A stretch of DNA of 63,208 nt, filler included, from Folioceros fuciformis (lineage: Eukaryota): the NCBI GenBank assembly GCA_049999805.1. It is 5 parts of 3 records of this genome, joined end to end, with 100 filler letters (N's around TTAATTAATTAA, not from the genome) between each part and the next. Parts side by side here need not be neighbours in the genome. Positions count along the whole stretch, not along the records: positions 38,339 to 54,790 come from JBNGIO010005845.1; 4 more parts are not named here. The stretch is one strand, 5' to 3'. Position numbers and translations under genes: made by a program. Shown here in pieces: positions 2,487-57,800 of this stretch. Each line of letters begins with the position of its first letter. Position 1 is the first letter of the stretch. The notes beneath the pieces were generated by a model, which searched no databases, was not told the DNA's origin, and saw nothing but the letters and a program-made list of their open reading frames with translations.

Positions 2487-5400
2487 ATGCAAACTCCGCG
2501 AATGCGATGCATGTATGCCATGATTGTTGGGCGCGTTGCGTGTCATTGGCAGTCAGGCCCAAGACAACTCTGTATGACCAGAGGTATCCTAGGAAGTGCT
2601 GCCGCTCGGCTGAGTCCAAGGTGCCGCCTGATGGCCGACCGGGACGGTTCCAGGGGAGGAAGAAAGGGACGAGAACCTTCCAGCCACGGGAAACTCTTGT
2701 GGGGACAGTCTGTTCCGGACCAGGCACTCTGGTGGGACAGTAGGTCCCGTGCCGCCGACTGTGGGAAAAGGGCAAAGAGGAGGTCGAATGGAATTGAACC
2801 TCGCAGAACTGCAGGATACTTGACGGGGGCCACGGCTGAAATCGTGGACAAACTGTGTCGGGAAGGTGAGCTCAGTGAGGCCGTGAACGCTCTAGGTATC
2901 CTGGTAGACGCCGCCTTTCCTGTTTCCAGGTCCTTGTTCTACACTTTGCTCAAAACCTGCGGTGTTAAGAAGCATATAGCTCTGGGGCGCCGTGTTCATG
3001 CTCTGACCCTGAAAGCGGGGTATGTGTCGGACACGTTCCTGAGCAACCATATCCTGCGCATGTATGCTTCTCATGGACGGTTGCAGGAAGCGAGGGATGT
3101 GTTCACCATGGTTGTCCAGCCAGATGCCTTTATGTGGTCCTCTATTATCTCTGCGCATGTTCAACAGGGACAAGTCAAGGAGGGTGTACAGCTGTATCAT
3201 GATATGCGCAGGTCAAGTGTGAAGCCAGATGGGCATGTGTTCGTGGCAGCTCTACAGGCTTGTGCAAGAAGTGCAGATTTGGCATCGGGGCAGCAGGTGC
3301 ATGCTGATTTATTGGCGGGCGGCGGTCAGCCTCATTTATTTGTGTATAATTGCTTGGTAGATATGTATGCAAAGTGTGGCANNNNNNNNNNNNNNNNNNN
3401 NNNNNNNNNNNNNNNNNNNNNNNNNNNNNNNNNNNNNNNNNNNNNNNNNNNNNNNNNNNNNNNNNNNNNNNNNNNNNNNNNTTTATTTGTGTATAATTGC
3501 TTGGTAGATATGTATGCAAAGTGTGGCAGCTTGGCAGACGCTCAGAGGGTGTTTGACTTACTTCTTCGCAAAGATGTGGTGACGTGGAATGCCATGATGG
3601 GAGGATATTTCCAGCAAGGCAAGAATCAGGAGGCTCTTCGTTTGTACAGTTCTATGCGAGAAGAAGGGGTGACGTCACCTGATTCTGTAACATTTTGTTG
3701 CGTGCTGCAGGCATGTTCAAGTGTCGGTATCCCTGCTTTGGCAAAGGGGAAGCTGCTTCATGCCCAGATTGAAGAAGGAGGCCTTCAGTATGATGTGGTT
3801 GTAGGGAACAATTTGATAAACATGTATGTGAAGTGTGGCAGCATTGAAACGGCCCAGAACGTGTTCGACAGTCTTCCATTGAAGGATGTGGTGACATGGA
3901 CTGCTTTGATAGCAGGGTACTCCCAGCTAGGCATGGGTCAGGAAGCTCTTCGTCTTTTCCGTGCAATGGAACAAGGGGGCGCAGTTGCACCCAATTCTGT
4001 GACATTTGTGTGCCTCCTTCAGGCATGCGCAAGTGTTGGTGCTGAGGCCATGGAGACGGGAAAGCAGCTTCATGCACAGATGGAAGATGAAGGCCTCCAA
4101 TTGGATGTAACTGTAGGCAATAGTCTGATAAATATGTATGTGAAGTGCGGCATCCTGGAGAATGCCCAGAGCTTGTTTGATGGACTTCGTGACAAAGATG
4201 TGGTGACCTGGAGTGCTCTAATAGCAGGATATTGTCAGCATGGCAGAGTCGAGGAAGCTCTTTGTCTCTACAGTGCCATGCGAGAGGAAGGCATCTGTCC
4301 ACCCAATTCCGTAACATTTGTGTGCCTCGTACAGGCATGTGCAAGTGTGGGTATTGTGGCTTTGGAGAAGGGCATGCAGCTCCACGCTCAGGTTGAACAG
4401 CTTGGCCTTCAATCTGATGTGGTTGTTGCCAACAGTTTGATTAACATGTATGCAAAGTGCGGGAGCCTACAACATGCTCAGAGCATTTTCGATAAACTTC
4501 TGCAAAAGGATGTGATGTCGTGGACAGCTTTGATAGCAGGGTACACACAGCAGTGCATGGCTCAGAAAGCCCTTTGTCTTTACGTTGCCATGCAGCAAGA
4601 AGGTATGGCTCAACTAAATACTGTCACATTTGTTTGCCTCCTGCACGCATGTGCCAGTGTGGGTATCACAGCTCTGGACACTGGGAAGCAGCTACATGCT
4701 CAAATTGTACAACAAGGTCTTCAAGCTGATGTGGTTGTGGGCAATAGCTTGATAAACATGTATTCAAAGTGTGGCAGCCTACATCATGCGAGGAACGTGT
4801 TTGACAACCTCTCCCAGAAGGATGTGGTTACGTGGACTTCTCTCATAGCAGGTTATTCCCAGCGGGGCATGGGTTACGAAGCCCTTCATCTGTACAGCGC
4901 CATGCAAGACGAAGGCATTGCCCCTCCGGATGTTGTGACATTTGTGTGCCTCTTGCAAGCATGTGGAATTGTGGGTCCCCTGGCGTTGGAGAAGGGGCAG
5001 CAGCTCCATGCACATATTAAAGAGCTTGGTCTTCAGTGCAACTGTTTTGTAGCCAACAGTTTGGTCAACATGTATGCGAATTGTGGCAGCCTAGAGGAAG
5101 CCCGAAGCGTGTTTGAGGGTCTTGGCCAGAAAGATGTGGTGACCTGGACCACTCTGATAGCTAGATATTCCCAGCAGGGCAGGGATCTGGAAGCCTTTCA
5201 GCTTTACTATGCAATGCAGCAGGAAGGCATGAACGCCCCAAATGCTGTGACATTTGAGTGCCTGTTGCAGGCATGTGTAAATGTTGGGACGCCAGCTTTG
5301 GAGACGGGAAAGGAGCTTCATGCACAAATTCAAAAACAAGGCCTTGGAGCTGATTTGACTTTATGCAATCGGCTGATAAAAATGTATGCAAAGTGTGGCA

Positions 5401-6731
5401 GCCTGGGAGATGCCCAGGGTGTGTTTGACGGACTTCCCACGAAAAATTTGGTGACCTGGACAGCTCTGATTGCAGGCTACTTTCAGCAGGGCAGGGGTCA
5501 GGAGGCCCTTCATCTCCATAGTGCTATGCGAGACGATGGTATTCCTCCAACCAGTGCACTAACAATGGTGTGCACCCTGCAGGCATGTGCAACTGTGGGT
5601 ATCACTGCCTTGGAAACTGGAAAGCAACTTCATGCTGAGATTGCTGCCCAAGGCCTTGCATCTGATTTACTCGTAGCCAACTGTTTGATAAACATGTATG
5701 CCAAGTGTGGAGGCATACAGCACGCCCATAGCCTGTTGAACAGCCTTCCTCACAAAGATGTGGTGTCATGGACCACTCTGATAGCAGGATATTCTCAGCA
5801 GGGCATGGTTCAGCAAGCCCTTGATGTGTACAATGCCATGCGACAAGAAGGTATCACCACACCCGATTCTGTGACATTTGTGTGTCTCTTGCAAGCATGT
5901 GGGGATGTGGCAGCCTTGCATGTAGGAAGGCAGATTCATGCAGAAATTTATGAGCGAGGGCTTCAAGCTGATTTCGTTGTAGCCGTCAGTTTGATCGACA
6001 TGTATTCGAAGTCTGGAAGTACGGTTGAAGCACAGAAGGTCTTTGATGGATTGCCTGAAAGAGGCATAGTGGCCTGGAATGCGCTGATTGGAGGGTACTG
6101 CCGTGAAGGCAATAGCAAGCTGGTGTTTGCCTTGGCTAGCAGGATGATAGACGATGGTATACATCCAGACGGCATTACTTTTCTAAGCCTACTGGCAGTT
6201 TGCAGTCACGCAGGCTTAGTGAGCAAGGGACGAGAATACTTTTACGCTATGAGCCGATACCATGGCATCACTCCCACTGCGGAGCACTACTCATGCATAG
6301 TAGATCTCCTAGGCCGTGCTGGTCAACTTGATGAGGCACTAGCTGTTGTCAGGACAATGACTGAACAGCCTCACATTGCTGTCTGGCGCACTCTACTGGG
6401 TGCTTGTCAAAAGTGGAGCGCCGTAGAGACTGCGCGTCATGCTTTTAGCGAAGCAGTGAAGCTGAACCCACAAGATGCAGCAGCGTATGTACTGATGTCT
6501 AACATATATACAGGTGCCCACATGCAGGAGGAAGCCGAGGAAATGCAGGCAAGGAGACTGGAAATCGGGGCATGGAAGAAACCGGGACAGAGCTGGTGGA
6601 CTGACCCGGACGGTCTTGTGCACAGCTTTGTGGTCGCAGATATACAGCATCCTGACGGGGAAGTGCTTTCTGCTATGTCACACTCGTTTGAATTCAAGGT
6701 CCAGGATAACGCCACTAGTTTGACCTTCTGA
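2487..6731 (+). CDS. Intronless PLS-class PPR protein: ~33 PPR motifs, E1/E2, WW-type PG box truncated before the deaminase core (E+-like); degenerate N-terminal PDF motif
   Basis: 10 PLS triplets plus P2L2S2; ends KKPGQSWWTDPDGLVHSFVVADIQHPD with no HxE/CxxC; true start may be a downstream ATG; the N gap is flanked by a 47-bp false duplication. Confidence 0.93.
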   Translation: MQTPRMRCMYAMIVGRVACHWQSGPRQLCMTRGILGSAAARLSPRCRLMADRDGSRGGRKGREPSSHGKLLWGQSVPDQALWWDSRSRAADCGKRAKRRSNGIEPRRTAGYLTGATAEIVDKLCREGELSEAVNALGILVDAAFPVSRSLFYTLLKTCGVKKHIALGRRVHALTLKAGYVSDTFLSNHILRMYASHGRLQEARDVFTMVVQPDAFMWSSIISAHVQQGQVKEGVQLYHDMRRSSVKPDGHVFVAALQACARSADLASGQQVHADLLAGGGQPHLFVYNCLVDMYAKCGXXXXXXXXXXXXXXXXXXXXXXXXXXXXXXXXXXLFVYNCLVDMYAKCGSLADAQRVFDLLLRKDVVTWNAMMGGYFQQGKNQEALRLYSSMREEGVTSPDSVTFCCVLQACSSVGIPALAKGKLLHAQIEEGGLQYDVVVGNNLINMYVKCGSIETAQNVFDSLPLKDVVTWTALIAGYSQLGMGQEALRLFRAMEQGGAVAPNSVTFVCLLQACASVGAEAMETGKQLHAQMEDEGLQLDVTVGNSLINMYVKCGILENAQSLFDGLRDKDVVTWSALIAGYCQHGRVEEALCLYSAMREEGICPPNSVTFVCLVQACASVGIVALEKGMQLHAQVEQLGLQSDVVVANSLINMYAKCGSLQHAQSIFDKLLQKDVMSWTALIAGYTQQCMAQKALCLYVAMQQEGMAQLNTVTFVCLLHACASVGITALDTGKQLHAQIVQQGLQADVVVGNSLINMYSKCGSLHHARNVFDNLSQKDVVTWTSLIAGYSQRGMGYEALHLYSAMQDEGIAPPDVVTFVCLLQACGIVGPLALEKGQQLHAHIKELGLQCNCFVANSLVNMYANCGSLEEARSVFEGLGQKDVVTWTTLIARYSQQGRDLEAFQLYYAMQQEGMNAPNAVTFECLLQACVNVGTPALETGKELHAQIQKQGLGADLTLCNRLIKMYAKCGSLGDAQGVFDGLPTKNLVTWTALIAGYFQQGRGQEALHLHSAMRDDGIPPTSALTMVCTLQACATVGITALETGKQLHAEIAAQGLASDLLVANCLINMYAKCGGIQHAHSLLNSLPHKDVVSWTTLIAGYSQQGMVQQALDVYNAMRQEGITTPDSVTFVCLLQACGDVAALHVGRQIHAEIYERGLQADFVVAVSLIDMYSKSGSTVEAQKVFDGLPERGIVAWNALIGGYCREGNSKLVFALASRMIDDGIHPDGITFLSLLAVCSHAGLVSKGREYFYAMSRYHGITPTAEHYSCIVDLLGRAGQLDEALAVVRTMTEQPHIAVWRTLLGACQKWSAVETARHAFSEAVKLNPQDAAAYVLMSNIYTGAHMQEEAEEMQARRLEIGAWKKPGQSWWTDPDGLVHSFVVADIQHPDGEVLSAMSHSFEFKVQDNATSLTF

Positions 6732-21252: not shown

Positions 21253-21352
21253 NNNNNNNNNNNNNNNNNNNNNNNNNNNNNNNNNNNNNNNNNNNNTTAA
21301 TTAATTAANNNNNNNNNNNNNNNNNNNNNNNNNNNNNNNNNNNNNNNNNNNN
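21253..21352. other. Artificial scaffold linker (N44-TTAATTAATTAA-N44); identical linkers at 38239-38338, 54791-54890 and 61818-61917
   Basis: Identical six-frame-stop 12-mer centred in 100-nt N blocks four times. Confidence 0.97.
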
Positions 21353-25699: not shown

Positions 25700-27345
25700 A
25701 TGACTGCCGAGAAGAACTGTCGTGGCCAGATTATTTCCCAGGTCTCACGCAATGGTCGGAGAACAGTCAGGATGGTGAGCTCCCGCCATGCTGACTTCAG
25801 GCAGAAGAATGTCAAGGAGTGTCTTTGGCTGGACTGCCTCAATCACGTATGGGTGGGTGAGTTCTCAGCTAACCGGGTGGGATGCCAAGATGAAAGACCC
25901 CGCTGGGTCCTCAGATTTACACAGCACTGTGGCCCTGCGGATGAAGGGCATTGGATGATAAAACAATGCTGTGATGAAGGAGAGCCGAGAGAGGCCGTGG
26001 AAGCGTTGGAGGTCCTTGTGCAGGGAGAATTTCAGGTTAGCGACACACTCTTCTATCTTGTGCTGACAATGTTTATGGCAAAAGCTGATCTGACGCTCGG
26101 CAGTTGAGTTCATGGTCTTGTTCTCCAAGGTGGGCTCGAATCAAATGCACTTTTTGCTAACTAAGTCATTGTCATGTATGCCTCGCATGGGAAATTGGAG
26201 GAAGCAGTTCAGGCATTTCGCAAAGAGAGTGTACCGAATACGTACATGCGGTCTTTCATCACATTGTCACATGTGCGTCATGGGCGACCCATGAAGGCCA
26301 TCAACTTTTGCCGAGAAATGCGAGAAACAAGTGTGAAGCCGGACAAGCATAGATTTGTGGCAGTCCTCAGGGCCTGTGCCAGTAAAGAGGGGCTGGGGTT
26401 TGGCTTTGGCAAAGCTGGTTCATGCTGGTATTCCTGTGAATGCTCTCAAAGTTAACATCTATGTTGGCAACAGCCTGGTGAGCATGTACGCCAAGTGCAG
26501 CAGCTTGGAGGATGCTCGCAAAGTGTTTGACCGCTGCCCTCCAGAGATGTGGTGACCTAGACTGCCTTGATTGCTGGATACAGACAGCAGGGAGCTCGGG
26601 CGACAGGGCCTGTCTCGGTATGGTAGGATGCAGTAGCAGGGCATCACTCCTGCTGATCATCCTACGTTAGCTTGCCTCCTCCGAGCATGTGCCAGTTTCG
26701 GAGCACTGCAAGAGAGGAAGCTGCTCCATGCGCAGGTTCGTGAACAAGGATTTGAGACCATTTACGTAGTTGTCGCTAACTGCTTGGTGGATATGTACGC
26801 CAACTACGGGAGCCTTGAAGCTACTCGCAGAGTCTTTCATGTGTTGCCCTAATGGGATGTTGGTTCATCGAGTTCTTCCCAATGGCTTTGCTGAACACGG
26901 AAATGGCCATGGTTCTGAAGAGATTCTTCAGCATGGAGTGGAGCCTAATGGGACTACGTTTCTTCCCCTTCTAGAGCCATGCAGTCACGCGAAGTCTGCA
27001 ACCTGACTGCATGAGAAAAGAGGTCTGATATAGCGTCCAAGCTGGAGAGCCTGAATGAGGAGGACGGATGGCATTTGCCGCAAACAGAACTGGTGCTGAG
27101 ACAGTACCTTAGAAGGAAGAAGATGCACTGTGTGGCCACGCAGAGAAATTGGGTTTGGCATATGGCCTGCTCAACACTCCAGGCGGCAAACATTTACTGG
27201 TGACCAAGAATCTCGGCATGTGCAACGACTTCCACAGCAGCACCAAGATTTTGTCACGCATTGAAAGGTGAGAAATTGTAGTGAAATTGTAGTATGCTAA
27301 TAGAGTTCACCGGTTGCAGGGCCTGTCCTGCTCATGCCAGATGAC
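25700..27345 (+). pseudogene. PDF-PLS-PPR-DYW:KP pseudogene
   Basis: SRHADFRQKNVKECLWLD (PDF remnant), MYASHGKLEEA, YAKCSSLEDARKVFD, then CGHAEKLGLAYGLLNTP..VTKNLGMCNDFH; many stops and frameshifts, E domains deleted. Confidence 0.9.
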
Positions 27346-34988: not shown

Positions 34989-37516
<2,528 letters not shown>

Positions 37517-41099: not shown

Positions 41100-41132
41100 T
41101 AGTTTAGTTTTAGGTTTTAGGGTTTAGGGTTT
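41100..41132. repeat. Short interstitial telomere-like TTTAGGG tract (similar tract at 60252-60270)
   Basis: tttagttttaggttttagggtttagggttt. Confidence 0.65.
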
Positions 41133-41597
41133 GTGAAGTTGGGTGGTTGAGGAGGTAAGTGTCAAGAAAGAAGCAAGGTCCATACATACGTAGCTATGTA
41201 GAAGGGTCATTGTCTTTATCCCTTTGCTTTTACCAGCCCATGATGCAATAGGTAAGAACTCCTCAGTTCTTATGAAGATTGTGCAAAGGCTTTATGTAAA
41301 ATGTTCTTCTTTTTTTTTTTTAAATATTTTTCAGCCTAGAATTGAAGTATGGATATCTCCACACCCACAAACCAAAACCATGAACCTCGTGCGAATGTTT
41401 GAAGCGAGCCGTCTGCCATTGCTGCATTAAGGGGGCAGCCATTCCTGGCTGCCGTCGTCAGTCGGAACGGACTGAGGAAGCCGGGTTGTTCAGGCTGGAT
41501 TGAATGCTGCTTGAGGAGAAGCAGGGAGCTGGATATTTTTCTGGGATTGCAGACATGTTATCATGAATGTTGAATCCCAGCACCAGCTGCCTCTTCG

Positions 41598-44500: not shown

Positions 44501-44730
44501 CTCCCGTTGTGACCAACGCCACCCCAGTCTCGAAAGTGGTCAGTCTGCTGCTGAAGTCTCCGTCACCGTTCATTACTGTCATAGACAGCAGCACGGCATC
44601 GTACCGCAAGGGCGACTTGTTAGAAGGCCAGGTCCTTGGTTTCCTTGTTCCGAGCAGCGTTTTCCTTCTGGATAGCCGGAGGTCATGGAACGCGATTACC
44701 ACGTCGCCTAACCTTGACCAATACTACTAA
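41598..44730 (+). CDS. Multi-exon P-class PPR protein with C-terminal CBS domains (At5g10690-like); start uncertain
   Basis: ELTRKRQLNQ, ITMNAVMEACVHC, VDTVTYGILIK, PDVVTYTTLIK, LDRVAYTAIIDAC, IPVVDKAGAYVGSV; GT-AG introns e.g. 41884-41967, 42129-42211, 42395-42498. Confidence 0.88.
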
Positions 44731-44774
44731 ATTATGGGACCGGTGTGTGGAGACAAAGCAGGAGCTGGGCCGGC

Positions 44775-45317
44775 ATGGGAGGAAGTGAGGGAAGCTCAGC
44801 GAGCCGGGGCAGTGATGCGGGGAATGTTTTCGTTACTGTGGGAACCACCCGCTTCGATGCCCTGGTGGAGGCGGTGGACGATCCACGACTTTTGTCTGTG
44901 CTGCGCGAGCGCGGCTTCTCCTCTCTGGTCATCCAGCTTGGCCGGGGCTCCTACCTCCCCGCCAGCGCCGGCGTCATCCCGGGCGGGTTCAAGCTGGAAT
45001 TCTTCACCTTTGCTCCTGATATAGCTCACCACATCCGCTCTGCACAGCTGGTGATCAGTCACGCCGGATCCGGCAGCGTGTTCGAGACTCTGCGAGCCGG
45101 CTCGCCCCTTGTGGTTGTGGTGAACGAGTCCCTAATGGACAACCACCAGAGCGAGCTGGCCAAGGAGCTGGCGGATAGGAAGCACCTCTTCTGTGCCACC
45201 CCTTCCTCTCTTGTGGATGTGGTGCGTAACATCGATGTGTCTGAACTGGTTCCGTATCCTGCCTGTTCTCCTGCGGCTATGGTCAAGAGCCTGGACCAAT
45301 TCTTAGGGTTCGGGTAG
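44775..45317 (+). CDS. ALG13: UDP-GlcNAc transferase catalytic subunit ALG13, intronless
   Basis: VFVTVGTTRFDAL, LVISHAGSGS, VVVNESLMDNHQSELA; first in-frame ATG at 44775. Confidence 0.95.
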   Translation: MGGSEGSSASRGSDAGNVFVTVGTTRFDALVEAVDDPRLLSVLRERGFSSLVIQLGRGSYLPASAGVIPGGFKLEFFTFAPDIAHHIRSAQLVISHAGSGSVFETLRAGSPLVVVVNESLMDNHQSELAKELADRKHLFCATPSSLVDVVRNIDVSELVPYPACSPAAMVKSLDQFLGFG

Positions 45318-45559
45318 CAAGCTGTCACCTGCAATTGGCTGATGTATTGGCTGATGGTTGTAGTGAATGATAGAAATTATACGTTGTGTGGCCCAACCCG
45401 AACCTCAAGTAAGGCTTGTTGATATGGGATTCCTGGACCACAGCTTCAGTGCAGCCAGTAAAGATTTAAGCCAAGCTTGAAGATTGAACAGTTCTTAAGG
45501 GCGGGCTTGGTACGTGGAGAGCAGCAGCTGAATGATGTATGATAATTGAGGTGTCTGTC

Positions 45560-45907
45560 AAATGAGGATCCCCGCACAAACAGGACTTGGGGTGCGTCTC
45601 AGACTAGAGTGTCCCGCGCCTCAAGACGTGACATAATCTTGGTGCTACTGTGGCGGTCACTGCACATCGGGCACAAGGAACCTTCCTTCGCCTGCTCAGA
45701 CACTGCTCTTTACATCTTCCAAGCCCTTGCGGAGTTCCGCAGACTTCCGATATCGTCCACGTCCTTCCACCTGCCGACGTTTGCATCGATATTGCCCAAG
45801 AGCACATATGGACTTGCACTTTGAGGCTCCAGTTTCACAAGGCGGTCGAAGCATCTCCGTCCTCGCTCGGCATCATCATGGGTTTTGCAGCCAGTCAGCA
45901 GGGCTCT
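45560..45907 (-). pseudogene. Decayed E1/E2/DYW tail of the 45908-47917 gene
   Basis: In frame after the stop: RALLTGCKTH...PYVLLGNI...RWKDV, stop, then MCSDRHSSTKIMSRLE. Confidence 0.85.
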
Positions 45908-47917
45908 CTAGCCCACCACATTGCCCTCAGAAGGTGCGGTCTGCAAGATGCGCTCTGCCTCATCCACCCGGCCTGCCCGCCCGAGAAGATCCGTCATGCA
46001 GCTGTGGTGGTAGTCGGAGGGTAAAATCTTATGCTCCTCCATCATCTTGAAATACCGCTGTCCCTCATCCACCAGTCCGGCGTGACAGCAGGCAACAAGG
46101 AGGGAACTGAAAGTAATCTCGTTAGGCTCAAATCCCTGCTCACACATGTCCTCGAAACACCGTATGGCCATTGCAGCGTTGCTGTCTTCTGCATAACCTT
46201 TGAGAAGGGCATTCCATGCCACCACATCCTTGGTGGACAAAGTGTCGAAAACGGAACGAGCCTCCTCCAAACTCCCACACTTTGCATACATGTTCACCAG
46301 GCTGCTGCCGATGGAGACCTCTTGTTCCAGGCCTTGTTTCCGAATGTGTGCGTGAAGCTCCTTGCCCGTCTGCAGCGCCCCGGCACTCGCACATGCTTGC
46401 AACAGGCAAGTGAACGTAACAGCATCATCGACACTGAGCCCCTCCTGCTGCATACTCCTGTACAACAACAGGGCTTGCTGGCCCATACCCTGCTGGGCAT
46501 AGCCTGCGATCATGGCAGTCCATGTGACCACATCTCTTGTGGGCAACTTGTCAAACACTGTGCGAGCATCTTCCAAGCTCCCACATTTTGCATACATTTC
46601 CACCAAGCAGTTACCCACAATAGCATTCCCTTCCATCCCACCTTGTCGAACCTGCGCGTGCAGCCGCTTTCCCTGCTTAAGATCGCCCACACTCGCACAA
46701 GCTCGAAGAAGGGCTACAAAAGTCACATTGTTGGCTCTCGTCACACCCTCCTTTCGCATGCTCTCATACAGGGCCAAGGCTTCCCTGCCGAGTCCCTTCT
46801 GCGTATAGCCTGAAATCATAGCAGTCCACGTTACCACATCCTTGGTGGCCAAGTTGTCAAACACTTTCCGAGCATCTTCCAAGCTCCCACACTTGGCGTA
46901 CATGTTAATCAGGCTGTTTCCGACAAAGATGTTGATTCTCACCGAACTCTTGGAGATGTCCTCATGAACCAGCTTCCCAGAAACCAGATCCTCTCCACTG
47001 GCACAAGCCTTCAGCACAGCTACAAAGATGTGATTATCCGGCTTCACCTTCGTCTCCCTCATCTCTCGGTAAAACCTCATCGCCTCCTTGGGCTGCCCTT
47101 TCCGGGCATGTGCCAGAATGATAGAAGACCACGTATAGGCATCTGGAGCACTCACCTTCCCAAAAGCCTGCACTGCCTCCTCCAACTGTCCATGAGAAGC
47201 ATACATGCCTATAATGTGGTTCGCCAGGGACGCGTTCCCCTGCAGACCGACTGTCCGAACAAGAGCATGCACCCGCCTACCAAGCCTTAGATCCCTTTCT
47301 TCCACGCACATTCTCAACACCCTACGGAAAAGAACCTCACGGATATGACATCCTCTCTGCACCAGGACCTCCAATTCCTCCACGGCCTCCCGCACCTTCC
47401 CCTCCTCGCATAATTTATTCAGCGTTTCCAGCTCAGAATCTCCTTCCCCTCCGCGCCCAACACCATTTTCTGTTCCGGGAATAGGTGCCACCCCGGATGG
47501 CGAGCCCAGCTGCGAATCCACCCACCCCGGCTTGCAGCGGCTACGCAGCCACAGCCCCTCTTTGGACGTCTTGTGCCTGAAGTCAGGATGGCGGGGGCTT
47601 CTCTTGTCCTCCCTGTTGTCCCACCATTGCGCTGGATCCGAGAAATACTCCTGCCACAGGAGCTCCTCCCGTTCCTTCCTGGGCAGCCCTTCCACAATAT
47701 AGTTCTCTGCAGAGGAAGCTGGCCGTGCCTCACCCCCCAACTTGGTTGATGCAAAGCTGTGGCACGCGAATCCGCCATCAATCGCTGCACATTGCTTGCC
47801 TCCCACCATAGGATCAGGCTTCCATGGCCCCCGCAGCTTGATGAGCGCAGCACGGGAGTCCGAAAATCCCGAATTGGACAACGGCAGTAACAGGGGCAGG
47901 TCCAGTGGCATCGCCAT
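45908..47917 (-). CDS. PDF-PLS-PPR protein truncated at the start of E1 by a TAG (likely from TGG)
   Basis: PDF motif WQEYFSDPAQWWDNREDKRSPRHPDFRHK..LWL..PGWV; intact PLS array through S2; first ATG at 47917. Confidence 0.85.
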   Translation of the reverse strand: MAMPLDLPLLLPLSNSGFSDSRAALIKLRGPWKPDPMVGGKQCAAIDGGFACHSFASTKLGGEARPASSAENYIVEGLPRKEREELLWQEYFSDPAQWWDNREDKRSPRHPDFRHKTSKEGLWLRSRCKPGWVDSQLGSPSGVAPIPGTENGVGRGGEGDSELETLNKLCEEGKVREAVEELEVLVQRGCHIREVLFRRVLRMCVEERDLRLGRRVHALVRTVGLQGNASLANHIIGMYASHGQLEEAVQAFGKVSAPDAYTWSSIILAHARKGQPKEAMRFYREMRETKVKPDNHIFVAVLKACASGEDLVSGKLVHEDISKSSVRINIFVGNSLINMYAKCGSLEDARKVFDNLATKDVVTWTAMISGYTQKGLGREALALYESMRKEGVTRANNVTFVALLRACASVGDLKQGKRLHAQVRQGGMEGNAIVGNCLVEMYAKCGSLEDARTVFDKLPTRDVVTWTAMIAGYAQQGMGQQALLLYRSMQQEGLSVDDAVTFTCLLQACASAGALQTGKELHAHIRKQGLEQEVSIGSSLVNMYAKCGSLEEARSVFDTLSTKDVVAWNALLKGYAEDSNAAMAIRCFEDMCEQGFEPNEITFSSLLVACCHAGLVDEGQRYFKMMEEHKILPSDYHHSCMTDLLGRAGRVDEAERILQTAPSEGNVVG

Positions 47918-48119
47918 CTCGTCTCGCCCGTCGGTGCTGGGAAACCTTCGGCACGCCGCCTCCCTCAAGCTGTCTTTCGTCTCTTTACCGCGGAAAACCT
48001 CGTCTCTTTACAGCGGAAAACCTCGTCTCTGGTGTTGGAGGATTAAGGCAATGGCTCTTCAGAAACTCACATTAACGAGTCGTTTTCTCAGACAGCGCTG
48101 GTCTAGCAGTTTGGGAGAC

Positions 48120-49400
48120 GCAGGCTGGCGCGGAATGCCGTTGAAGCAGTGAATGCAGCGGCAGGGAGCTGGAGCTTGTTGCAGGATTGCAGGCATCACG
48201 TTACGAATGTTTAATCCCAGCAGCAGCGGCCTCGTCGGTATCCTCTTCTTCTACCTTGCGTGGACCTGTACAAATGTGGGGTGGAATTCAGCTCCGCTGC
48301 CATGACACCGGAAGCGAAGGAATTGGGCTATGCAAGAAGGCCGAGTCATGGTCTAGAGTAGCGGGCAGTTTCACCTACGGTACGGCGGCGCCGTGAGGGT
48401 TGCCCTGCCATTTCCACCACACGAAACTGGACGAAGCTAGTGTTATGAGGATCCTCCGATGCCATAAGAGTGCGAATCATCCTGACCAAGCCGAGCTTCT
48501 GTGGAGTAGTTGGGAAATGTGCGGTTGTCCGGAGTTGTGTGTTCAAATTGTGAGCTCTGCTGTGCTTTTGCGCCAGTCAAGGTTTAGCAGAGAGTTGGAA
48601 TGGCACCGGACCCACTATGAAGGGGTTGGCGTGATAGAGCCACTGATCATATTGCCGTTTTGGCAGAAGCATAGGCGCTGTGTCTAACCGAGGAGCTTGT
48701 GGAGCTTACCGGGACGAGGCAGCTCAATCCAGTACCAGTCTGCCTTATGGTATGGAATGTGTATCGGGCCTTAAGTTAAGGGAATCCTGACAGTCAGGGT
48801 CAGGGCCTTGACAGATTTTGAAGCTGGTGGAAACAGCAAAACAGGGGAGATGGGAACTGCATTGGATATCCCTGAATGTGGCGATGGAGCTTTCTGTGCA
48901 TTGTACCGACACTGACCTTGTGTTGGTTGTGAAACATATGGGATGCTAACAAAGGCCTGCTGGGCCATGCAGCATTGCTCTTCTCCTGGTGGTTGCATGT
49001 GAAGAAAACCTTGTGCCCTTGCTCGTGCTGTTTGTGTTTCACGTGTGGTTCAGGACACGGCCTTGGGCAAGTGAAACGACTGAGTGACGCGTTTCTCGGA
49101 TGTGAACCACTCGAGAAGGGCATAGCCTCTGGCTCTGAAGTTGATCGATGAGATACCTTCGAATGACTTAAAAGCACAGGAGCTGACTTCGACCTCTCTT
49201 GTACTGGCACAAGTTGTTCCCGGGGCGGGGACACACAGAAAGCCCTTGATTTTTTGAGGCATACGAAGGTTGGAGCACGGAACTACTGTACCCTTGTGCC
49301 GCATGTTGTTACTCAGCCCAAAGTCCAACATACTTCTTCGGGTGATAACCCAGGAGGAAGCGAAGCATCTGGATTCTCCAGAAATGCTTCCAGATGCCTC
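48120..49400 (+). pseudogene. Degenerate intron-retaining duplicate of the 5' part of the PPR-CBS gene
   Basis: Colinear matches: IQLRCHDTGS, KSANHPDQAEL, RFSRELEWHRT, EEAKHLDSPEMLPD; frameshifts and an internal deletion. Confidence 0.9.
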
Positions 49401-49479
49401 CAGAAACCCTCTTCACTTTACACGTTCTCGGTCAAAGTGTCCACTTTTCCGTCGTGCAAGTGGAGGAGGCGATGTCGGT

Positions 49480-49740
49480 GACAAGTGATCTGCGCTCGGC
49501 AGATCGTGGGAAGTACTGCGCTAAGTTTGCAAAACGTTCGCTCTGCATACACAGACTTGTTTGTTGGCAACACATTCATGCGTAAGTGGATGTGCGAAGC
49601 GAGAACATCGAGGATGCTGAACAGGTGTTTGATTCCGGCGAAACGCAGGGCCTGCACTGCCGTGACTGCAGCAACACGGTCAGCAAGGTCAACGACTCAG
49701 ACGCTTTGCATCTCTATGCCGAGATGCAAGCACCAAGGTT
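49480..49740 (+). pseudogene. Short PLS-PPR remnant
   Basis: DLFVGNT..., IEDAEQVFD, DALHLYAEMQ across frames. Confidence 0.55.
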
Positions 49741-49812
49741 GAACCATAGCAACGAGAGGAAGCAATATTGTCTAGCATGCATACTGCAGCAACGGGTATT
49801 CCTTCGTTGTTC

Positions 49813-49960
49813 TCACGGTCGATCCTTACAACTGCGAAAACCAACTGCAAACCGATGCACACGGTACCCATCCCTTACGACAACGTTTCTCTGTTCGACC
49901 CTTAACGAATCTCCGTGGCACCGTGGCAGTCGCTGCACAAGCGATGCATGCTCCAGGTGA
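49813..49960 (-). pseudogene. Tandem partial duplicate of the DYW:KP 3' end of the adjacent gene
   Basis: EQRNVVVRDGYRVHRFAVGFRSCKDRP versus EQRDIVVRDGYRVHRFAGGFCSCKGRA. Confidence 0.9.
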
Positions 49961-50033
49961 AAATTCACATGAAGGTTGCCACCCGCAACAAGAAAAATTG
50001 CGAACACTTGCCCATCTGGGTACTCTATTTTTC

Positions 50034-52430
50034 TCACGCTCGACCCTTGCAACTGCAGAAACCACCTGCGAATCGATGCACACGGTACCCATCCCTTACG
50101 ACGATGTCTCTCTGTTCAATCCTTGACAGGATCTCCGTGGAAGTGTGGCAGTCGCTGCACATGCGTAGATTCTTCGTTACCAACAGGGGTGTCCCACTCG
50201 GAGTGTTCAACAGACCAAACGCCAGAGCAAGCTTCTCAGCATGTCCACAAAGCATATCCTCCTTTTCCTCTTCAGACAATGGCTTCAAGACCAACTTTGT
50301 GTGAGGTTCATGGCCTCCTTCCTGCTTCACACGTGCTTTCGTGCTCTCCACCTGAAGAGCGATATCCTCTCTCCTTTCTCCCACCGTAAACCTATGTAGG
50401 TCCTTATTCACCTCAATGGTTGCCACTGCATTTTTTTTGTCAGCTCCTGCTAACCTTCTCCGTGTTTCTATCCTATCTACATCAGTCCACCTACCGGCAT
50501 CTGCATAGGCATTGGCCATCAGCACATACGCCGGTGCCTCCTGTGGGACCAGCCTGACAATGCTTTCAAAACAACGCAGCGCCCTCTCTATATCCCTGTA
50601 CATTTTGCAGGCATTCAACAAGGTCCTCAAGCCCACAACATTACTTTGGTCCTCACATGACAAAAGCATCTTCTCAGCCTCGTCTAAATGGCCTGCCCGC
50701 CCAAGAAGATCAACCATGCAGGTGTAATGCTCAATAGTGGGTTTGATGCCATGCTGTGTAGCCATGGAATCAAAGTGCTTGCGACCCTCCTGGACCAGCC
50801 CCCCATGACTGCATGCGACTAAAAGGCAGGTAAAAGTAGCACCATCAGGTTGGATACCGGCATCTAACATCTCCTCAAAACAAGCTAGTGCTCTGTGAGC
50901 ATCGTCACAAGTACCATACGCAGATATCAGCGCCGTCCAGGTAACTGAGTCCTTCGAGGCCATGCTGTCAAACACTTGGCGGGCATCTTCCAGCTCACCA
51001 CATTTTGCATACATGTCAACTAGGCAGGTGCCCACCAGTATGTCACTCAGGAGTCCTTTTTTGACAATCTGCGAGTGCAGATCCCTACCTTTTTGTAAGG
51101 CACCAGTGCTTGCACAGGCCTTTAGAAGGCAAGCAAAAGTAAAATGGTCAGCCAAGACCAGCCCCTCCTGCTCCATTCGTGCATACAAAAGCAGTGCCTC
51201 ATGTCCGAGCTCTTGATCGGCATAGCCAGCAATGAGCGCCGTCCATGTCACTACATTCTTGGTGGGCATTCTGTCAAAAACCAGGCGTGCATCTTTCAGT
51301 TCACCACATTTTACATACCCAGACACCAGCGCCGTCCATGTCACTACATTCTTTGTGGCCATGTTGTCAAACACCTGGCGTGCCTCTTTCACTTCACCAC
51401 ATTTTGAGTACATGTCCACCAGAGAGGTGCCAACAAACAAGTTATCCGGAATGCCACTCCGCAACACATCACAGTGAACATTTCTGCCGGATTCCAAGTC
51501 GGCCGCAACTGCACAAGCTTGAAGGGCAGCTACAAAAACATGAGCATCTGCCTTCACTCCTGACCTACGCATCTCGTGGTACAGCTGGATGGCCTCCTTA
51601 GGCTTCCCATGTTTGGCATATGCAGAGATGATTGAACCCCACGTGATAACATCTGGTTTGCTGACCCTGGTGAACACATCCTTGACCTCCTCTAGCCTGC
51701 CACCACATGCATACATTCGCAGGATATGATTCCCCAAGTACGCATTCGATCCGGACCCCAGTTTGACGCTGAGGTTATGAACTCGTCGCCCCGCAACCAG
51801 ATCCTTCTTGACTGTACACAGTTTCAGCACAGTGCAAAACAGAGACACAGGAATGACGGAGTCTGTCTGCGCAAGAGCTTCCAGGGCTCTAACGGCATCA
51901 GAAAGCTTCCCCTCCTGACAGAACGTGTTCACGATAGCTGCCGTGACGACACCAATTCCCCATCCTGCGCGCCTGCCAGTTTCCAGCTTATCTGGTGACC
52001 TGGACTTGGAAGGAAAGGCTCCGCGGCCCATCTCCATATCCGAGGCAACCAGCTGTTCATCAACCCAAGCTGGCTTCAACAAGTCTTTTACCCACAGCAC
52101 CTCCCCGGACCCCTTACGACGGAAGTCAGGCGATCGAGACCTCGTCTTGTCTCGTCTGTTGTCCCACCACCTGGTAGGCTCCAGAAACAATTGTTGCCAC
52201 AATTGCTCCTGCTCTTGCTGCTGGCGACGGCCATCGCTAGATAACCCGTCCCCACCCACACACTTTTTGGGAAGTGGAGATGATCGGCTCCTGACACTGC
52301 TGCACCTGGAGGGTTGCTTGTTTGCCGGGGATTGACTTCCTGAGGTGAGGTGAGCGGGAGCGCCTGGTAGAATCCCTGTGCGAACACCGATTTGTTGGGA
52401 CCACAACACTCCCCGCGCGCATCGACGCAT
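50034..52430 (-). CDS. Intact PDF-PLS-PPR-E1-E2-DYW:KP (GRP-type) protein; candidate organellar U-to-C RNA editing factor
   Basis: R/S-rich transit-like N-terminus, PDF motif, 13 PPR motifs, KNAVATIEV box, LVLKP, CGHAEKLA, MCSDCH, ends CSCKGRA. Confidence 0.95.
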   Translation of the reverse strand: MRRCARGVLWSQQIGVRTGILPGAPAHLTSGSQSPANKQPSRCSSVRSRSSPLPKKCVGGDGLSSDGRRQQQEQEQLWQQLFLEPTRWWDNRRDKTRSRSPDFRRKGSGEVLWVKDLLKPAWVDEQLVASDMEMGRGAFPSKSRSPDKLETGRRAGWGIGVVTAAIVNTFCQEGKLSDAVRALEALAQTDSVIPVSLFCTVLKLCTVKKDLVAGRRVHNLSVKLGSGSNAYLGNHILRMYACGGRLEEVKDVFTRVSKPDVITWGSIISAYAKHGKPKEAIQLYHEMRRSGVKADAHVFVAALQACAVAADLESGRNVHCDVLRSGIPDNLFVGTSLVDMYSKCGEVKEARQVFDNMATKNVVTWTALVSGYVKCGELKDARLVFDRMPTKNVVTWTALIAGYADQELGHEALLLYARMEQEGLVLADHFTFACLLKACASTGALQKGRDLHSQIVKKGLLSDILVGTCLVDMYAKCGELEDARQVFDSMASKDSVTWTALISAYGTCDDAHRALACFEEMLDAGIQPDGATFTCLLVACSHGGLVQEGRKHFDSMATQHGIKPTIEHYTCMVDLLGRAGHLDEAEKMLLSCEDQSNVVGLRTLLNACKMYRDIERALRCFESIVRLVPQEAPAYVLMANAYADAGRWTDVDRIETRRRLAGADKKNAVATIEVNKDLHRFTVGERREDIALQVESTKARVKQEGGHEPHTKLVLKPLSEEEKEDMLCGHAEKLALAFGLLNTPSGTPLLVTKNLRMCSDCHTSTEILSRIEQRDIVVRDGYRVHRFAGGFCSCKGRA

Positions 52431-53130
52431 CGCCTTACCATGCGGCGAGAAGGAGGACGGCGTGGGGCAACCGCAAGTGCGGTCGGGGACGTAGACTGGT
52501 ACCTACGAAGTAATGCCGGTTCCTAGTCCAGAGACACCGGCCCGTGCCATTCCCATCAGCAACTAAATGCCATACAACTCCCTCCGTCTATGCTCCTGTC
52601 TCAAACCGCCCACCTTATCTGTGTGTGAGTTTCCAACATTCCATGAACAGCTCCCAACAAGACGAGCCCGAGTCCTCCAGCCAGTGCTCACTGCTTGCTC
52701 GGGTCTCTCCAAGGACACCAACCATGCTAATCCTCTTCTTTGTCCAAAACAAAACCTTACGAAATAACGGCATTACATACCATGTTGGAAGCAAACACCC
52801 TTGTTGTTCAACGGGGATTCAACACAAGGTCTCCTCCTCCTGCACGCACGGAGTCCCAAGGAACGTGGAAAATTGAGTTTGTCGGACGCGGATGAAGGGC
52901 AAGCAGCTCATCGGCTTTCTGTTCTACAGAGTCCAGCCGGCCGGAGAGCCCGAGCAGCTCAAGCATACTTTCTAGACCGATCTAAGTACTGTAGCTTGCA
53001 TATCCCTTCCTCCCAGGTACGCACAGCGAGCTTCAGGTTCGCCTTTTGGAACAATGTGTAAGACGTGAGAAGCAGCTGTGGGCTGTGGATTCTTCCTTGC
53101 GTTTGTGGGCTGTGGATTCTTCCTTGCGTT

Positions 53131-54718
53131 TGTCATGCTTATTGCTGTATGGGAAACAGAGCACCTAAGACTCTATGACTGGATACTGACTAGAGCATCC
53201 TGGGCATCTATGACTGGATACTGACTAGAGCATCCTGGGCATAAGCCCTGAATGCTGAAATGACTAGATACTGACTGGAGCATCTCGGGCATAAGCCCTG
53301 ATGCTGAAGTGCTTGATGATGTCATGTACATGGCCCATGGATGGCCTGCACATGACATGTATGCCATATATGCATGTGTGCCATGTATGCATGCATATGG
53401 AGATGAAGGATGACATGTGATGTATGTGGACATGTGGCAGGTGATGTGTCATGGCGCATGCAACCTATATGCATGGTTGTGCATGAAAGGCGCGGTGCTA
53501 TGCCGCATATATAGATAGCAGATTTATATTAGAAGATATTAGAAAATACATAAAAATCATAAATCAAGGAAAGTAGGATTATAAAGTGCCCACCATCGAT
53601 ACGGGTGGACACTTCATCGAGAACTCCTGGGGGTTTTTGCCTATATATGTAGGCACCCAGCCATGGATTCTCGGATTGTTGATGTTTGTCTTGTTCCAAT
53701 AGACAGCCATACTTCGTCCCTGCTGTGTCTTTGTCTCCTAGAGGTTCTTGTGGTTCGTTGCATTGCCAGGTTGGGAGAATTTTCCAGCTTGATTTCACCN
53801 NNNNNNNNNNNNNNNNNNNNNNNNNNNNNNNNNNNNNNNNNNNNNNNNNNNNNNNNNNNNNNNNNNNNNNNNNNNNNNNNNNNNNNNNNNNNNNNNNNNG
53901 CAAACCTAGTCTCTTTTTGTAGCCTTGCTCTTGGCCATAGGCCAAGGACAAATTAAGGCTAGGATTGTTGCTCCTGGGCCGAAGGCCAAGGAGATCGCAG
54001 GCAGGCGGAAGCTTAGTGACCTAGCTTGGTAGACAGGCTAGGTAGGCATGCAGCTATGCGGCTGCTGCGCGACAGCTGTCATGCTGTTGCTGTATGGGAA
54101 ACAGAGCACCTAAGACTCTATGACTGGATACTGACTAGAGCATTCTGGGCATAAGCCCTGAATGCTGAAATGACTAGATACTGACTGGAGCATCTCGGGC
54201 ATAAGCCCTGATGCTGAAGTGCTTGATGATGTCATGTACATGGCCCATGGATGGCCTGCACATGACATGTATGCCATATATGCATGTGTGCCATGTATGC
54301 ATGCATATGGAGATGAAGGATGACATGTGATGTATGTGGACATGTGGCAGGTGATGTGTCATGGCGCATGCAACCTATATGCATGGTTGTGCATGAAAGG
54401 CGCGGTGCTATGCCGCATATATAGATAGCAGATTTATATTAGAAGATATTAGAAAATACATAAAAATCATAAATCAAGGAAAGTAGGATTATAAAGTGCC
54501 CACCATCGATACGGGTGGACACTTCATCGAGAACTCCTGGGGGTTTTTGCCTATATATGTAGGCACCCAGCCATGGATTCTCGGATTGTTGATGTTTGTC
54601 TTGTTCCAATAGACAGCCATACTTCGTCCCTGCTGTGTCTTTGTCTCCTAGAGGTTCTTGTGGTTCGTTGCATTGCCAGGTTGGGAGAATTTTCCAGCTT
54701 GATTTCACCACATCAACA
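53131..54718. repeat. Two near-identical ~650-bp LTR-like direct repeats (53131-53799, 54078-54718) separated by a gap
   Basis: Both begin TGTCATGC and contain gactggatactgactagagc subrepeats; the second ends CA; the duplication may be an assembly artefact. Confidence 0.7.
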
Positions 54719-54890
54719 ATCCGCTTGTTGGGGACTAAGATACAGTACTGGAGGAGACTGTGGCGCGCTGGAGATTGGATGAAGAGGCGGNNNNNNNNNN
54801 NNNNNNNNNNNNNNNNNNNNNNNNNNNNNNNNNNTTAATTAATTAANNNNNNNNNNNNNNNNNNNNNNNNNNNNNNNNNNNNNNNNNNNN

Positions 54891-57800
54891 GTGCCGAGCG
54901 ATCGCCAGGGTGCGGCCAGGCAAGCCGCCAGACGCGGGCAACAATCCCGGTCGGCGAATCCTGGCAGCGCGGTGTCGACAAGTGTCAATCGCGGCTGGCG
55001 GATACCAGTCCTGCGGACGAGCGAGGTTACGAAGCCGAATCGCGGGCTGTCGTCGCATGTGAAAGTCGCTAACGCCAGACACAAGATTGCAAGTGCCAGA
55101 GCACCGACGTCGAGGGCAAAGACGAGAGCTAGTTGGGATCCCGGCCGCAAGGTGGAATCTGATCTCAACGGAGGATTTAGGTTTGACGTGTCATCCTAAA
55201 TTGTGGACAGAAGAATCGGAACGAGGGTAACAGAATCTACATTACATTTCGACAGTTTCTAACTAGCGTTTTGCTTGATTTGCATCAATTTTGAAACATG
55301 GCGTCCTCAGAAAACGTCATGTTCAATATCGAAAAGTTAGATGGTACTAACTTCTCGTTCTGGAAAGAACAAGTGTATAATGGTCTAGTACAGAAGAAGC
55401 AGATCAAGCCCATAAAGTTGCTAGGAGTGAAACCTGTTAGCATGACCCAGGATGAGTGGCAGGATTTAGATGAGCTTGCTAGGTCTACCATCATGCTAAC
55501 ATTGTCAAAGTCGGTCTACTTCAACGTGAAAGACAAGACCACAAGCTACGAGCTATGGCAGAAGTTGTGTGACCTGTACAAGAAGCAAAGTGCGGCTTCT
55601 CAGGTGTACTGGTTGAAACAACTGGTGGACTTGAAGATGAAGGAAGGGACGAGGATGTCATATCATCTGAACGAGTTCAATACCATTTTCAGCCAACTCT
55701 CATCTCAAGGTATCTTGTTCCCAGACTCCGTGAGAGCTATGTTTCTGTTGGTCACATCACCAGAGAGCTGGGACACCTTTTGTACAGCTCTGAGTAATTC
55801 CGCTCCTGCCAGTGGTCTTACCATTGTAAATGTTGAAGGTAGCCTGTTAACAGAGGAGGTGAACAGGAAGAATATGGAACCTTCGAAAGGTTCCAATGCC
55901 CTCATGGTAAGAGGAAGGTCCACTTCAAAGGGGAAGTACAAGGAGCGAAGTTCTTCCCGTAGTAAATCTCGTAGTCGTAACAATGTTGAGTGCTACCATT
56001 GTCACAAGAAGGGGCACATCAGGAAGGATTGCGAGAAGTTCAAGAAGGACAAAGGAAAGGAGAAGAAGCAAAGCGACAACAAAGCAAGTTCGAGTACCAA
56101 GCCTAACGAGGTGAATTCTGTTGACGATGGAGATGTACTTATCTCTTCTTCCTTCGATTCTGCACAACTGACAGCCGTGGAGAGTCACTTATTCTCTAAT
56201 TGGATAATTGACTCTGGAGCATCTTTTCATGTTACTCCGCATAGAGAGTGGTTTAGCACATATGATGCTACTAGGAAAGGATGTGTACGGCTTGGAAATA
56301 ACTACGCATGCGAGATTGTAGGCGTTGGTGATGTGCAGTTGAAGTTCGACAACGGATCTTCATTCGTACTAAAGGATGTTAGGCATGTTCCCAAGTTGGC
56401 TAAGAGCATGATTAGTGCAGGGCAGTTGGATGACGCTGGCTACCATTGTTGGTTTGGAGATCGTTCTTGGAAGATCTCCAAAGGCTCTCTTGTGTTAGCT
56501 CGTGGATTGAAGTGTGGCACTTTGTACTCACTTCAGGTAACCATTGTCAAGGATCATGTGATTTGTGTCACGGAACAGGCAAGTGTTTCCTTGTGGCATA
56601 GTCGGTTAGGACACATGTCTCAGAAAGGAATGAAGATACTATCTCGTTTTGGTTACGTCCCTGCTTTTGACTTCTCCGATTTCTCCGTGTGTGAGCACTG
56701 TCTGTATGGGAAACAGACCAAGTCACCACATGGAGCAAGAGGTAAACACAAAAATAAACCTCTTGAGTTGGTTCATAGTGACGTCTGTGGACCTATGCCC
56801 ACTGTATCGTTAGGCAGTGCGTTCTATTTTGTCACTTTCATACATGATTTCTCACGCAAGGTGTGGGTTTATCCTTTGAGGAAAAAGGATGATGTTCTGA
56901 CAGTGTTTCAGAAGTTCGTCACCCTTGTGGAGAATCAGTCTGGCTTGCGATTGAAATGTCTAAGAACAAACAATGGAGGAGAGTATGTTTCGAAGGCTTT
57001 TCAGTCTTTCTGTGATTCCAAGGGAATTAGGAGAGAATTGACTGCCCCGTACACTCCCCCCCAAAATGGTGTGGCCGAACGGATGAACAGGACCATCCAG
57101 GAGAGGATGTGTAGTTTGTTATCAAACTCTGGATTGCCTAACGGATTTTGGGCAGAAGCAGTTGCTACTGCAGTGCATCTTATTAACAAATCTCCTAATA
57201 GGGCTGTGGATGAACAGGTTCCAGAGGAAATGTGGTCTGGCAACCAGCCGTCATATAAGCATCTACGAGTATTTGGCTGCGAGGCATACTACCATGTTCC
57301 GGAGGAGTTTCGGGACAAGTTCGCACCTAAGTCCAAGAAATGTATTTTTCTTGGCTATGGTGAATCTGGTGAGATGGGATACCGTCTATGGGATCCAGAA
57401 GCCAAGAGGATGGTTCGCAGCAATGACGTATTCTTCAATGAGACCAAGATGCACAAGAAACCTACTCCAACTGTGGAGGTACGACGGGTGGTCTTCCAAG
57501 AAGACGGATTTGACAGTCCTGTGCAGGTTGAACGTCGTGATGTGCAGGAACAAGTTCCTCCACTAGTACAAGAGGAGAGAGTGCAACCAGCTCCGGTCGA
57601 GGCGCCAGTACTTTGCAGGTCAGGAAGGATTTCACGTGCTTCTGACAGGTATGTTGCATCTCTTGATTATGTCATGCTGACAGATTGTGGGGAGCCCTCT
57701 TGTTACCAAGAGGCCATGTCAGTGATTGACAAGGACAAGTGGGAGAAGGCAATGCAGTCGCAAATGGATTCACTCCACAAGAACCAAACTTGGGAATTGA

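Follow-up and report, generated by a model that had tools for sequence, protein, structure and literature searches.

An OSB-type PDF motif heads a candidate U-to-C editing PPR protein of Folioceros fuciformis and recurs on PLS-class PPR proteins of other non-seed land plants

The window analysed here is a 63,208-nt stretch of Folioceros fuciformis DNA, along the whole of which all coordinates are counted, and the gene under study (the target) lies within its JBNGIO010005845.1 part (positions 38,339 to 54,790). The encoded protein consists, in order, of a presequence, a PDF domain, a PLS-type array of pentatricopeptide repeats (PPRs), an E motif and a DYW:KP-type domain (Table 1). The PPR array, the E motif and the HxE(x)nCxxC deaminase signature are together those of PLS-class PPR-E-DYW proteins, and the closest database proteins share just 51-52% identity with the target. 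Residues 1-60 contain 10 Arg/Lys, 12 Ser/Thr and no Asp/Glu, presumptively the composition of an organelle presequence. Judged from its sequence, the protein is best explained as an organelle-targeted PLS-class PPR RNA-editing factor. At its N-terminus, residues 77-123 are a genuine PDF motif of the type found in plant proteins of the OSB (organellar single-stranded DNA-binding) family. The original prediction, made from this DNA alone, had placed such a segment between a transit-like peptide and the first PPR, and we find it there, with an acid-free N-terminus before it and PPR helices after it; the peptide quoted reads as written, and the span of ~52050-52208 given for it compares with 52062..52202 for the core motif. 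Pfam returned no match within residues 1-150 and, at E<=1, no SSB domain in the 798-residue target. The protein bears an OSB module, yet is not itself an OSB.

The PDF motif is described as ~50 residues long, with Pro, Asp and Phe conserved, and as lying C-terminal to an OB-like fold (PMC6963530; PMC4166229; PMC6451138). The motif of AtOSB1 is reported to suffice for binding single-stranded DNA (ssDNA) (PMC6963530), in line with the activity that the original prediction had ascribed to the OSB motif. When residues 66-135 were searched exhaustively with phmmer in 1.84 billion representative proteins, 555 matched at E<=1e-3, of which 137 at E<=1e-10, and many matches hold 2-13 tandem copies towards the C-terminus. 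Among 20 matches that were looked up, the functionally named clusters were OSB1 (Populus, P0050), OSB2-like (Asparagus, P0031), organellar single-stranded DNA binding protein 3 (Euphorbia, P0046) and OSB3 (Anthurium, P0069). Among ten that were scanned with Pfam, the SSB domain was clear in P0034 and weak, under the Pfam cut-off, in P0036 and P0002.

A non-circular hidden Markov model (HMM), built only from nine PDF segments of four named OSB1/2/3 proteins, scored the target open reading frame (ORF) at 59.1 bits (E 1.5e-17 among the 883 six-frame ORFs of the window) and the isolated 70-residue segment at 65.1 bits, compared with a maximum of 12.7 bits for shuffled sequences (1985 of 2000 shuffles scored). 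The HMM comparison with OSB PDF motifs that had been proposed alongside the original prediction is therefore significant. A wider HMM of 301 segments from 142 non-PPR matches, from which six PPR matches, a kinesin fusion and a 6790-aa protein were excluded, gave 69.7 bits. Nothing at E<=1e-3 came from word-indexed searching with the motif region at shorter and near lengths, and the motif was not represented in Pfam when the target and ten motif matches were scanned. Elsewhere among the matches (P0033, P0095), a 1526-aa protein has three PDF copies before its kinesin motor domain and a 6790-aa protein has 17 matched stretches; these contexts are either real fusions or merged gene models.

Table 1. 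Features of the target gene, of the other PPR loci and of the rest of the window
Feature	Coordinates	Strand	Basis
Target coding sequence, complete, intronless, 798 aa plus stop	50034..52430	-	uninterrupted ORF from first ATG
Presumptive organelle-targeting presequence, residues 1-60	52251..52430	-	composition only
Predicted PDF mini-domain, residues 65-135 (helix, short beta strands, helix)	52026..52238	-	AlphaFold2
Core PDF motif, residues 77-123 (47 residues, with P101-D102-F103)	52062..52202	-	profile match and alignment
Linker, residues 137-155, poorly conserved, predicted disordered (pLDDT <50)	51966..52022	-	AlphaFold2 and conservation
PLS-type PPR array, residues 157-610	50601..51962	-	Pfam PPR E 1.1e-63, PPR_2 E 5.1e-59; helices in AlphaFold2 model
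E motif, residues 611-673	50412..50600	-	Pfam PF20431, E 2.8e-11
DYW:KP-type domain, 133 aa, residues 666-798	50037..50435	-	alignment; Pfam DYW_deaminase 706-796, E 7.6e-34
Neighbouring PPR ORF, 669 aa, N-terminal PDF (63.1 bits)	45908..47917	-	named-OSB HMM
Frameshifted PPR pseudogene, second half of PDF (E 2.6e-5)	25700..27003	+	named-OSB HMM
1414-aa PPR ORF, first half of PDF only (5 bits)	2487..6731	+	HMM; spans N run 3382-3481
Ty1/copia-type retrotransposon, unbroken 1322-aa gag-pol ORF (gag, protease barrel, integrase, RVT_2)	55298-59266	+	
Related retroelement fragment	17344-18051	+	
Related retroelement fragment	19597-21153	-	
RING-H2 finger protein gene	29067-30371	-	
Monodehydroascorbate-reductase-like gene, C-terminal exon	34989-35591	-	
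Protein kinase ORF, markedly AT-rich surroundings (GC 0.33 at 38-40 kb)	38584-39966	-	
N runs, plus four 100-base runs (in all four 100-N, four 44-N pairs with 12-base spacer)	21253-21352; 38239-38338; 54791-54890; 61818-61917		

The PDF is predicted to be a self-contained mini-domain, flexibly tethered to the PPR array. In an AlphaFold2 model of residues 61-330 (270 aa), made from an alignment of 28 PDF-bearing PPR proteins and with a mean predicted local distance difference test score (pLDDT) of 89.6, a long helix opens the PDF region, which continues with two or three very short strands and closes with another helix (block pLDDT 90-97); 19 residues with pLDDT <50 come next, and then regular PPR helix pairs. 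The same elements appeared when the 75-residue domain was modelled alone from 52 sequences including OSB-type proteins (mean pLDDT 87.6, predicted template modelling score 0.74), and across both models the block pLDDT of the mini-domain is mostly 83-97. A fold like that of the double-stranded RNA-binding domain, considered for its helix-strands-helix order, was unsupported by Foldseek or VIA-align.

Conservation is maximal in the motif and lower in its flanks. Column conservation is 0.6-0.85 in the motif, at least that of the PPR repeats, versus 0.2-0.5 in the linker. Among the 28 PDF-bearing PPR proteins, the invariant N-terminal columns are W78, W88, D90, R92, K95, P101, D102, F103 and P120; with 24 OSB-type single-motif proteins added (52 copies), W78, W88, D90, R92 and P101-D102-F103 are still invariant. 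The target keeps every family-wide invariant residue. The PDF is thus under constraint at the same residues on PPR proteins as on OSBs.

At the other end of the protein, the last 133 residues align without gaps with relatives ending in GRP or DRH, and both the target and these relatives are without four residues (the xHP region) that are found in canonical PG-type DYW rows. The catalytic features comprise HAE at residues 730-732, Lys753 (domain position 88), CSDCH at 758-762 and CSC at 792-794. The hallmarks given for DYW:KP domains are HAE, a PG box that is altered and an end other than DYW, with GRP and DRH variants in hornworts (PMC9478123), so that the GRP-like end of the target would point to a hornwort; a length of 132-133 residues without xHP and a Lys at position 88 are further features (PMC9478123; PMC11845758). 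The target has the HAE, the length of 133 aa without xHP, the Lys at position 88 and a non-DYW terminal triplet. Consensus KP designs carry out U-to-C editing (PMC9478123; PMC11845758), which bears out, for such designs, the editing activity that the original prediction had attributed to HAE/GRP-type DYW:KP domains, and Lys88 is essential to it in designer proteins (PMC11845758).

Compared with the DYW:KP-type PPR proteins that hornworts, lycophytes and ferns have, and with the designer proteins KP2, KP3 and KP6, the target shares HAE, the missing xHP, Lys88, CxDCH, CSC and the domain length. It differs where its domain starts, with KN for KP, and where it ends, with GRA for GRP, the latter one residue off. 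At the PG-box site (residues 666-667) the GRP-type relatives have KP, and V, L, A or S is seen in other HAE-type relatives; because these relatives vary at the P position, KN does not seem clearly disabling. From these features the target is a candidate U-to-C editor with a KP-type (GRP-like) DYW domain. To have called it an intact candidate U-to-C editase appears a fair description.

How widely the PDF occurs was surveyed in the 120 nearest full-length PPR homologues of the target, a small sample biased to relatives of one gene. The motif is present on 27 of them, among which canonical DYW, KP-type and DYW-less proteins are all represented; besides these, PPR proteins account for 6 of the 150 motif matches listed and bear 1-3 PDFs at the N-terminus, and two of the six belong to ferns, Adiantum and Ceratopteris. 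By organism, PDF-bearing rows come from the lycophyte Diphasiastrum (19/29), the liverwort Calypogeia (4/4) and the moss Sphagnum (1/1), as well as from rows without an organism name (3/52), and none was found in the rows of Adiantum (0/8), Ceratopteris (0/2), Ceratodon (0/1), Ginkgo (0/19) or Cryptomeria (0/3), or in a row labelled Balamuthia (0/1). Taken by group, the motif is on 24 of the 45 rows from named non-seed land plants versus none of the 22 gymnosperm rows. Counts also differ with the length of the stretch before the first PPR match: where it is 100 residues or longer, a PDF was found in 25 of 28 homologues, and where it is shorter, in 2 of 92. Many of the HAE-type rows that lack it come from short contigs and may have been cut at the N-terminus, and the absences are soft to that extent.

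Sorting by C-terminal type was done with the named-OSB profile on 127 rows (the 120 homologues, the target and the six PPR motif matches). The PDF is on 11 of 59 HSE-type rows, all PDF-bearing ones of which end in DYW, on 3 of 16 HAE-type rows including the target, on 20 of 50 rows with no recognised DYW catalytic site and on neither of the two HVE or HCE rows. The three HAE-type proteins are the target, P0175 (ending in GRP) and P0250 (ending in DRH). Because it is also on HSE/DYW and DYW-less rows, the PDF is not tied to the KP type, nor is it special to the target gene.

The PPR-borne copies cluster together in a tree of 42 of them with 90 random OSB-type segments (out of 399), which was built on 56 columns and is poorly resolved. 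The PPR label changes 3 times on this tree, compared with a mean of 36 when labels are shuffled, and none of 500 shuffles was as low. With the 42 PPR-borne copies held as one clade, the tree gained 16 log-likelihood units over what the free search found, and it was not rejected (approximately unbiased test, p 0.69). This sequence evidence is in keeping with, and does not prove, the view that a PLS PPR gene captured a PDF unit once, long ago, and that the unit then spread with the family. The PDF head is an old N-terminal module, apparently of single origin, that many PLS PPR proteins in bryophytes, lycophytes and ferns have in common irrespective of their C-terminal end. P0137 and P0138, two short rows that bear the non-PPR label, lie within the main PPR cluster and are maybe N-terminal fragments of PPR genes.

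We postulate, by analogy with the OSBs, that the PDF provides the factor with accessory single-stranded nucleic-acid binding, either retaining it at the nucleoid or on nascent transcripts or boosting its affinity for RNA, a role that we consider slightly more probable than not. On import, the presequence of ~60 residues would be cleaved upstream of the PDF, and the mature protein would start with one PDF domain, a module of ~50-70 residues that a flexible linker of ~20 residues would connect to the PPR array. The PDF would grip single-stranded nucleic acid without sequence preference, and through this binding the factor would stay attached to the nucleoid or to nascent transcripts, or else gain in general RNA affinity; the PPR array would read the target sequence and the DYW domain would do the chemistry. 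OSB1 and OSB2 are reported to favour ssDNA over double-stranded DNA or RNA (PMC4166229), and the simplest reading would therefore be that the PDF keeps the factor at the nucleoid, near transcribed DNA, with a general boost in RNA affinity as the alternative.

Several observations weigh against a role in nucleic-acid binding on an active editor. The ssDNA preference of OSB1 and OSB2 (PMC4166229) means that a role in RNA affinity is not implied by the precedent. Moss PPR56, which may or may not have a PDF of its own, edits in the heterologous host E. coli when its N-terminus is removed so far that 14 residues are left ahead of the first PPR (PMC10482289), so that an N-terminal module would not be generally needed for catalysis. 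The motif is missing from 93 of the 120 nearest homologues. Of the 15 HAE-type rows besides the target, 13 are without it, and each of these has a short N-terminus that may reflect a truncated gene model. The structure gave no independent hint of function, as the PDF-only model found no match in the PDB with Foldseek at E<=0.001 and VIA-align, run over 48,161 chains, peaked at Z 4.6 with no chain reaching 5, nulls that carry no implication on the novelty of the fold. Lastly, the KN/KP and GRA/GRP deviations mean that, as read from the sequence, activity of the deaminase is not assured.

Other explanations of the PDF were weighed on the same data. The domain could be a module for protein contacts or oligomerisation, with OSB proteins, other PDF-PPR proteins or an editosome partner on the other side, and the reported tetramer of AtOSB2 (PMC6963530), the richness of a small domain in invariant aromatic residues and the arrays of 2-3 PDFs on some PPR proteins are in keeping with this. 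However, ssDNA binding is the only experimental activity of the motif reported in the excerpts of PMC6963530, and the residues that are invariant in OSBs are also invariant on PPR proteins, which suggests the same ligand; we regard a contact role as unlikely. It is more doubtful still that the PDF is a functionless relic or is lost with the cleaved targeting peptide. Half motifs are indeed decaying in the 25.7 kb pseudogene and the 1414-aa gene of this window, and the presequence is presumed from composition only, but the intact target gene keeps all the family-wide invariant residues, the motif is conserved over bryophytes, lycophytes and ferns more than its flanks and at least as much as the PPR motifs, its fold is predicted with confidence, and the acid-free, presequence-like stretch stops before it.

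The original prediction had gone further and proposed that this architecture may tether editors to nucleoid ssDNA or transcription bubbles, for co-transcriptional editing, or may act as a built-in RNA chaperone, ideas whose sole biochemical footing is the ssDNA binding of the OSB1 motif (PMC6963530) and the ssDNA preference of OSB1 and OSB2 (PMC4166229). In a specific version, PDF-PLS-DYW:KP would be a particular architecture of U-to-C editors, in which the PDF, as an adaptation of these editors, would couple reverse editing to transcription bubbles or nucleoid ssDNA. Three proteins (the target, P0175 and P0250) do join a PDF to an HAE-type DYW domain, and the ssDNA-binding precedent of the OSB motif applies to them. 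The distribution does not sustain the claim: the PDF is at least as common on HSE/DYW proteins (11 rows) and DYW-less ones (20 rows) as on HAE-type ones (3 rows), and 13 other HAE-type relatives are without it, though all have short N-termini. It is also on PPR proteins of a liverwort (4/4 rows) and a moss (the single Sphagnum row), which fall outside the three clades for which U-to-C editing is named in the excerpts of PMC9478123. We therefore give a KP-specific adaptation very little credence. That a low-complexity basic stretch came to resemble the OSB motif by chance, for which the shortness of the motif is the only point, is refuted by scores of 59-65 bits versus a shuffle maximum of 12.7 and by the 137 matches at E<=1e-10.

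If the PDF does bind nucleic acid as postulated, its place among land plants may bear on the helpers of editing. MORF genes are reported in seed plants only (PMC13386178) and PDF-PPR proteins were seen only in non-seed plants (0/22 gymnosperm rows), and on these grounds we offer, tentatively and as an idea that may well prove wrong, that the PDF is an in-cis helper of PLS editors in land plants without MORFs, acting as a nucleoid anchor that would couple editing to transcription, or as a MORF-like aid to RNA binding, and that it was lost once seed plants gained MORFs. The likeness to the MORF/RIP helpers of seed plants would be one of possible function only, namely aiding PLS PPR editors, as MORFs have no sequence relation to the PDF and act in trans.

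Among known systems, the nearest to the PDF head is that of plant OSB1-4, with which the target shares the sequence family (E 1.5e-17), the W, W-D-x-R and P-D-F invariants and the length of ~50 residues. In OSBs the PDF follows an SSB-like OB fold, lies C-terminally and is present in 1-5 copies (PMC13393729), whereas the target has a single copy before the PPR array and no OB fold, and the PPR-borne copies form a cluster of their own. PPR proteins with accessory domains, such as maize PPR4 with its N-terminal RRM, the PPR-SMR proteins and OTP51 with LAGLIDADG, likewise combine a PPR array with a second nucleic-acid-related module, and in PPR4 the N-terminal domain, a general RNA binder, provides a precedent (PMC9459714). 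These are P-class proteins with domains listed in Pfam, whereas the PDF is on PLS-class editors and is not in Pfam.

The conserved PDF head on many non-seed PLS PPR genes is apparently unreported. No description of a PDF-PPR fusion was found in the searched literature, the coverage of which is partial, so that an earlier mention is possible; within the same limits this agrees with the original prediction, whose author was not aware of one. The literature retrieved on the "PDF motif" deals in part with organellar DNA replication and none of it with PPR proteins, a replication review drawing no link to PPRs, and the core pentapeptide of the motif led only to an unrelated paper in the searched literature. 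A 2026 survey of OSBs kept only proteins with both an OB-fold and a PDF (PMC13393729) and would for that reason drop PPR fusions. The available text of a 2026 kingdom-wide survey of editing factors (PMC13386178) does not contain "OSB", "PDF" or "single-stranded", and the excerpts of the DYW:KP publications (PMC9478123, PMC11845758) are on C-terminal domains and leave an N-terminal PDF unmentioned. Being absent from Pfam, the PDF head is perhaps unlisted in domain surveys.

PPR-DYW editors are under intensive study, both for the biology of plant organelles and for use as programmable base editors of RNA, and it is routine to trim their constructs so that they start shortly ahead of the first PPR (PMC10482289). 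A conserved domain, predicted to fold and derived from an ssDNA binder, on a large share of non-seed PPR genes would, if true, be an overlooked component of these factors. It opens a direct test of a physical link between editing factors and organellar DNA or nascent RNA, and it may help to explain editing without MORF helpers and possibly provide an affinity-raising addition to designer editors. The target gene itself is an ordinary member of this wider PDF-PPR class.

All four PPR loci of the window show the PDF in some state. That of the neighbouring 669-aa ORF is as clear as the target's, with which it shares 51% identity across the region. This ORF has an in-frame stop just before the E motif and encodes either a truncated PLS protein or is a pseudogene; beyond the first stop, E-like sequence in the same frame and a heavily deleted DYW remnant with more stops were observed (45300-47917, minus strand). 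In the frameshifted pseudogene, the first ORF retains the second half of a PDF, after which comes the usual first PPR helix. The 1414-aa ORF reaches a PG-type box and ends shortly after it, with the DYW catalytic region absent from every frame downstream.

Sequence depth was inspected over 45000-53200 in runs X1-X3 and X6. Summed contigs in the PPR repeats reach tens to thousands of times the level of the flanks, and many contigs link distant PPR repeats; the excess reflects how very large the family of similar PPR genes is, both in the source organism and in a second one. Run X1 covers the intergenic stretches 45000-46289 and 48087-49404 at gene-like depth, and is probably DNA and hence uninformative on transcription. 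The remaining features of the window, among them an intact-frame retrotransposon, are listed in Table 1.

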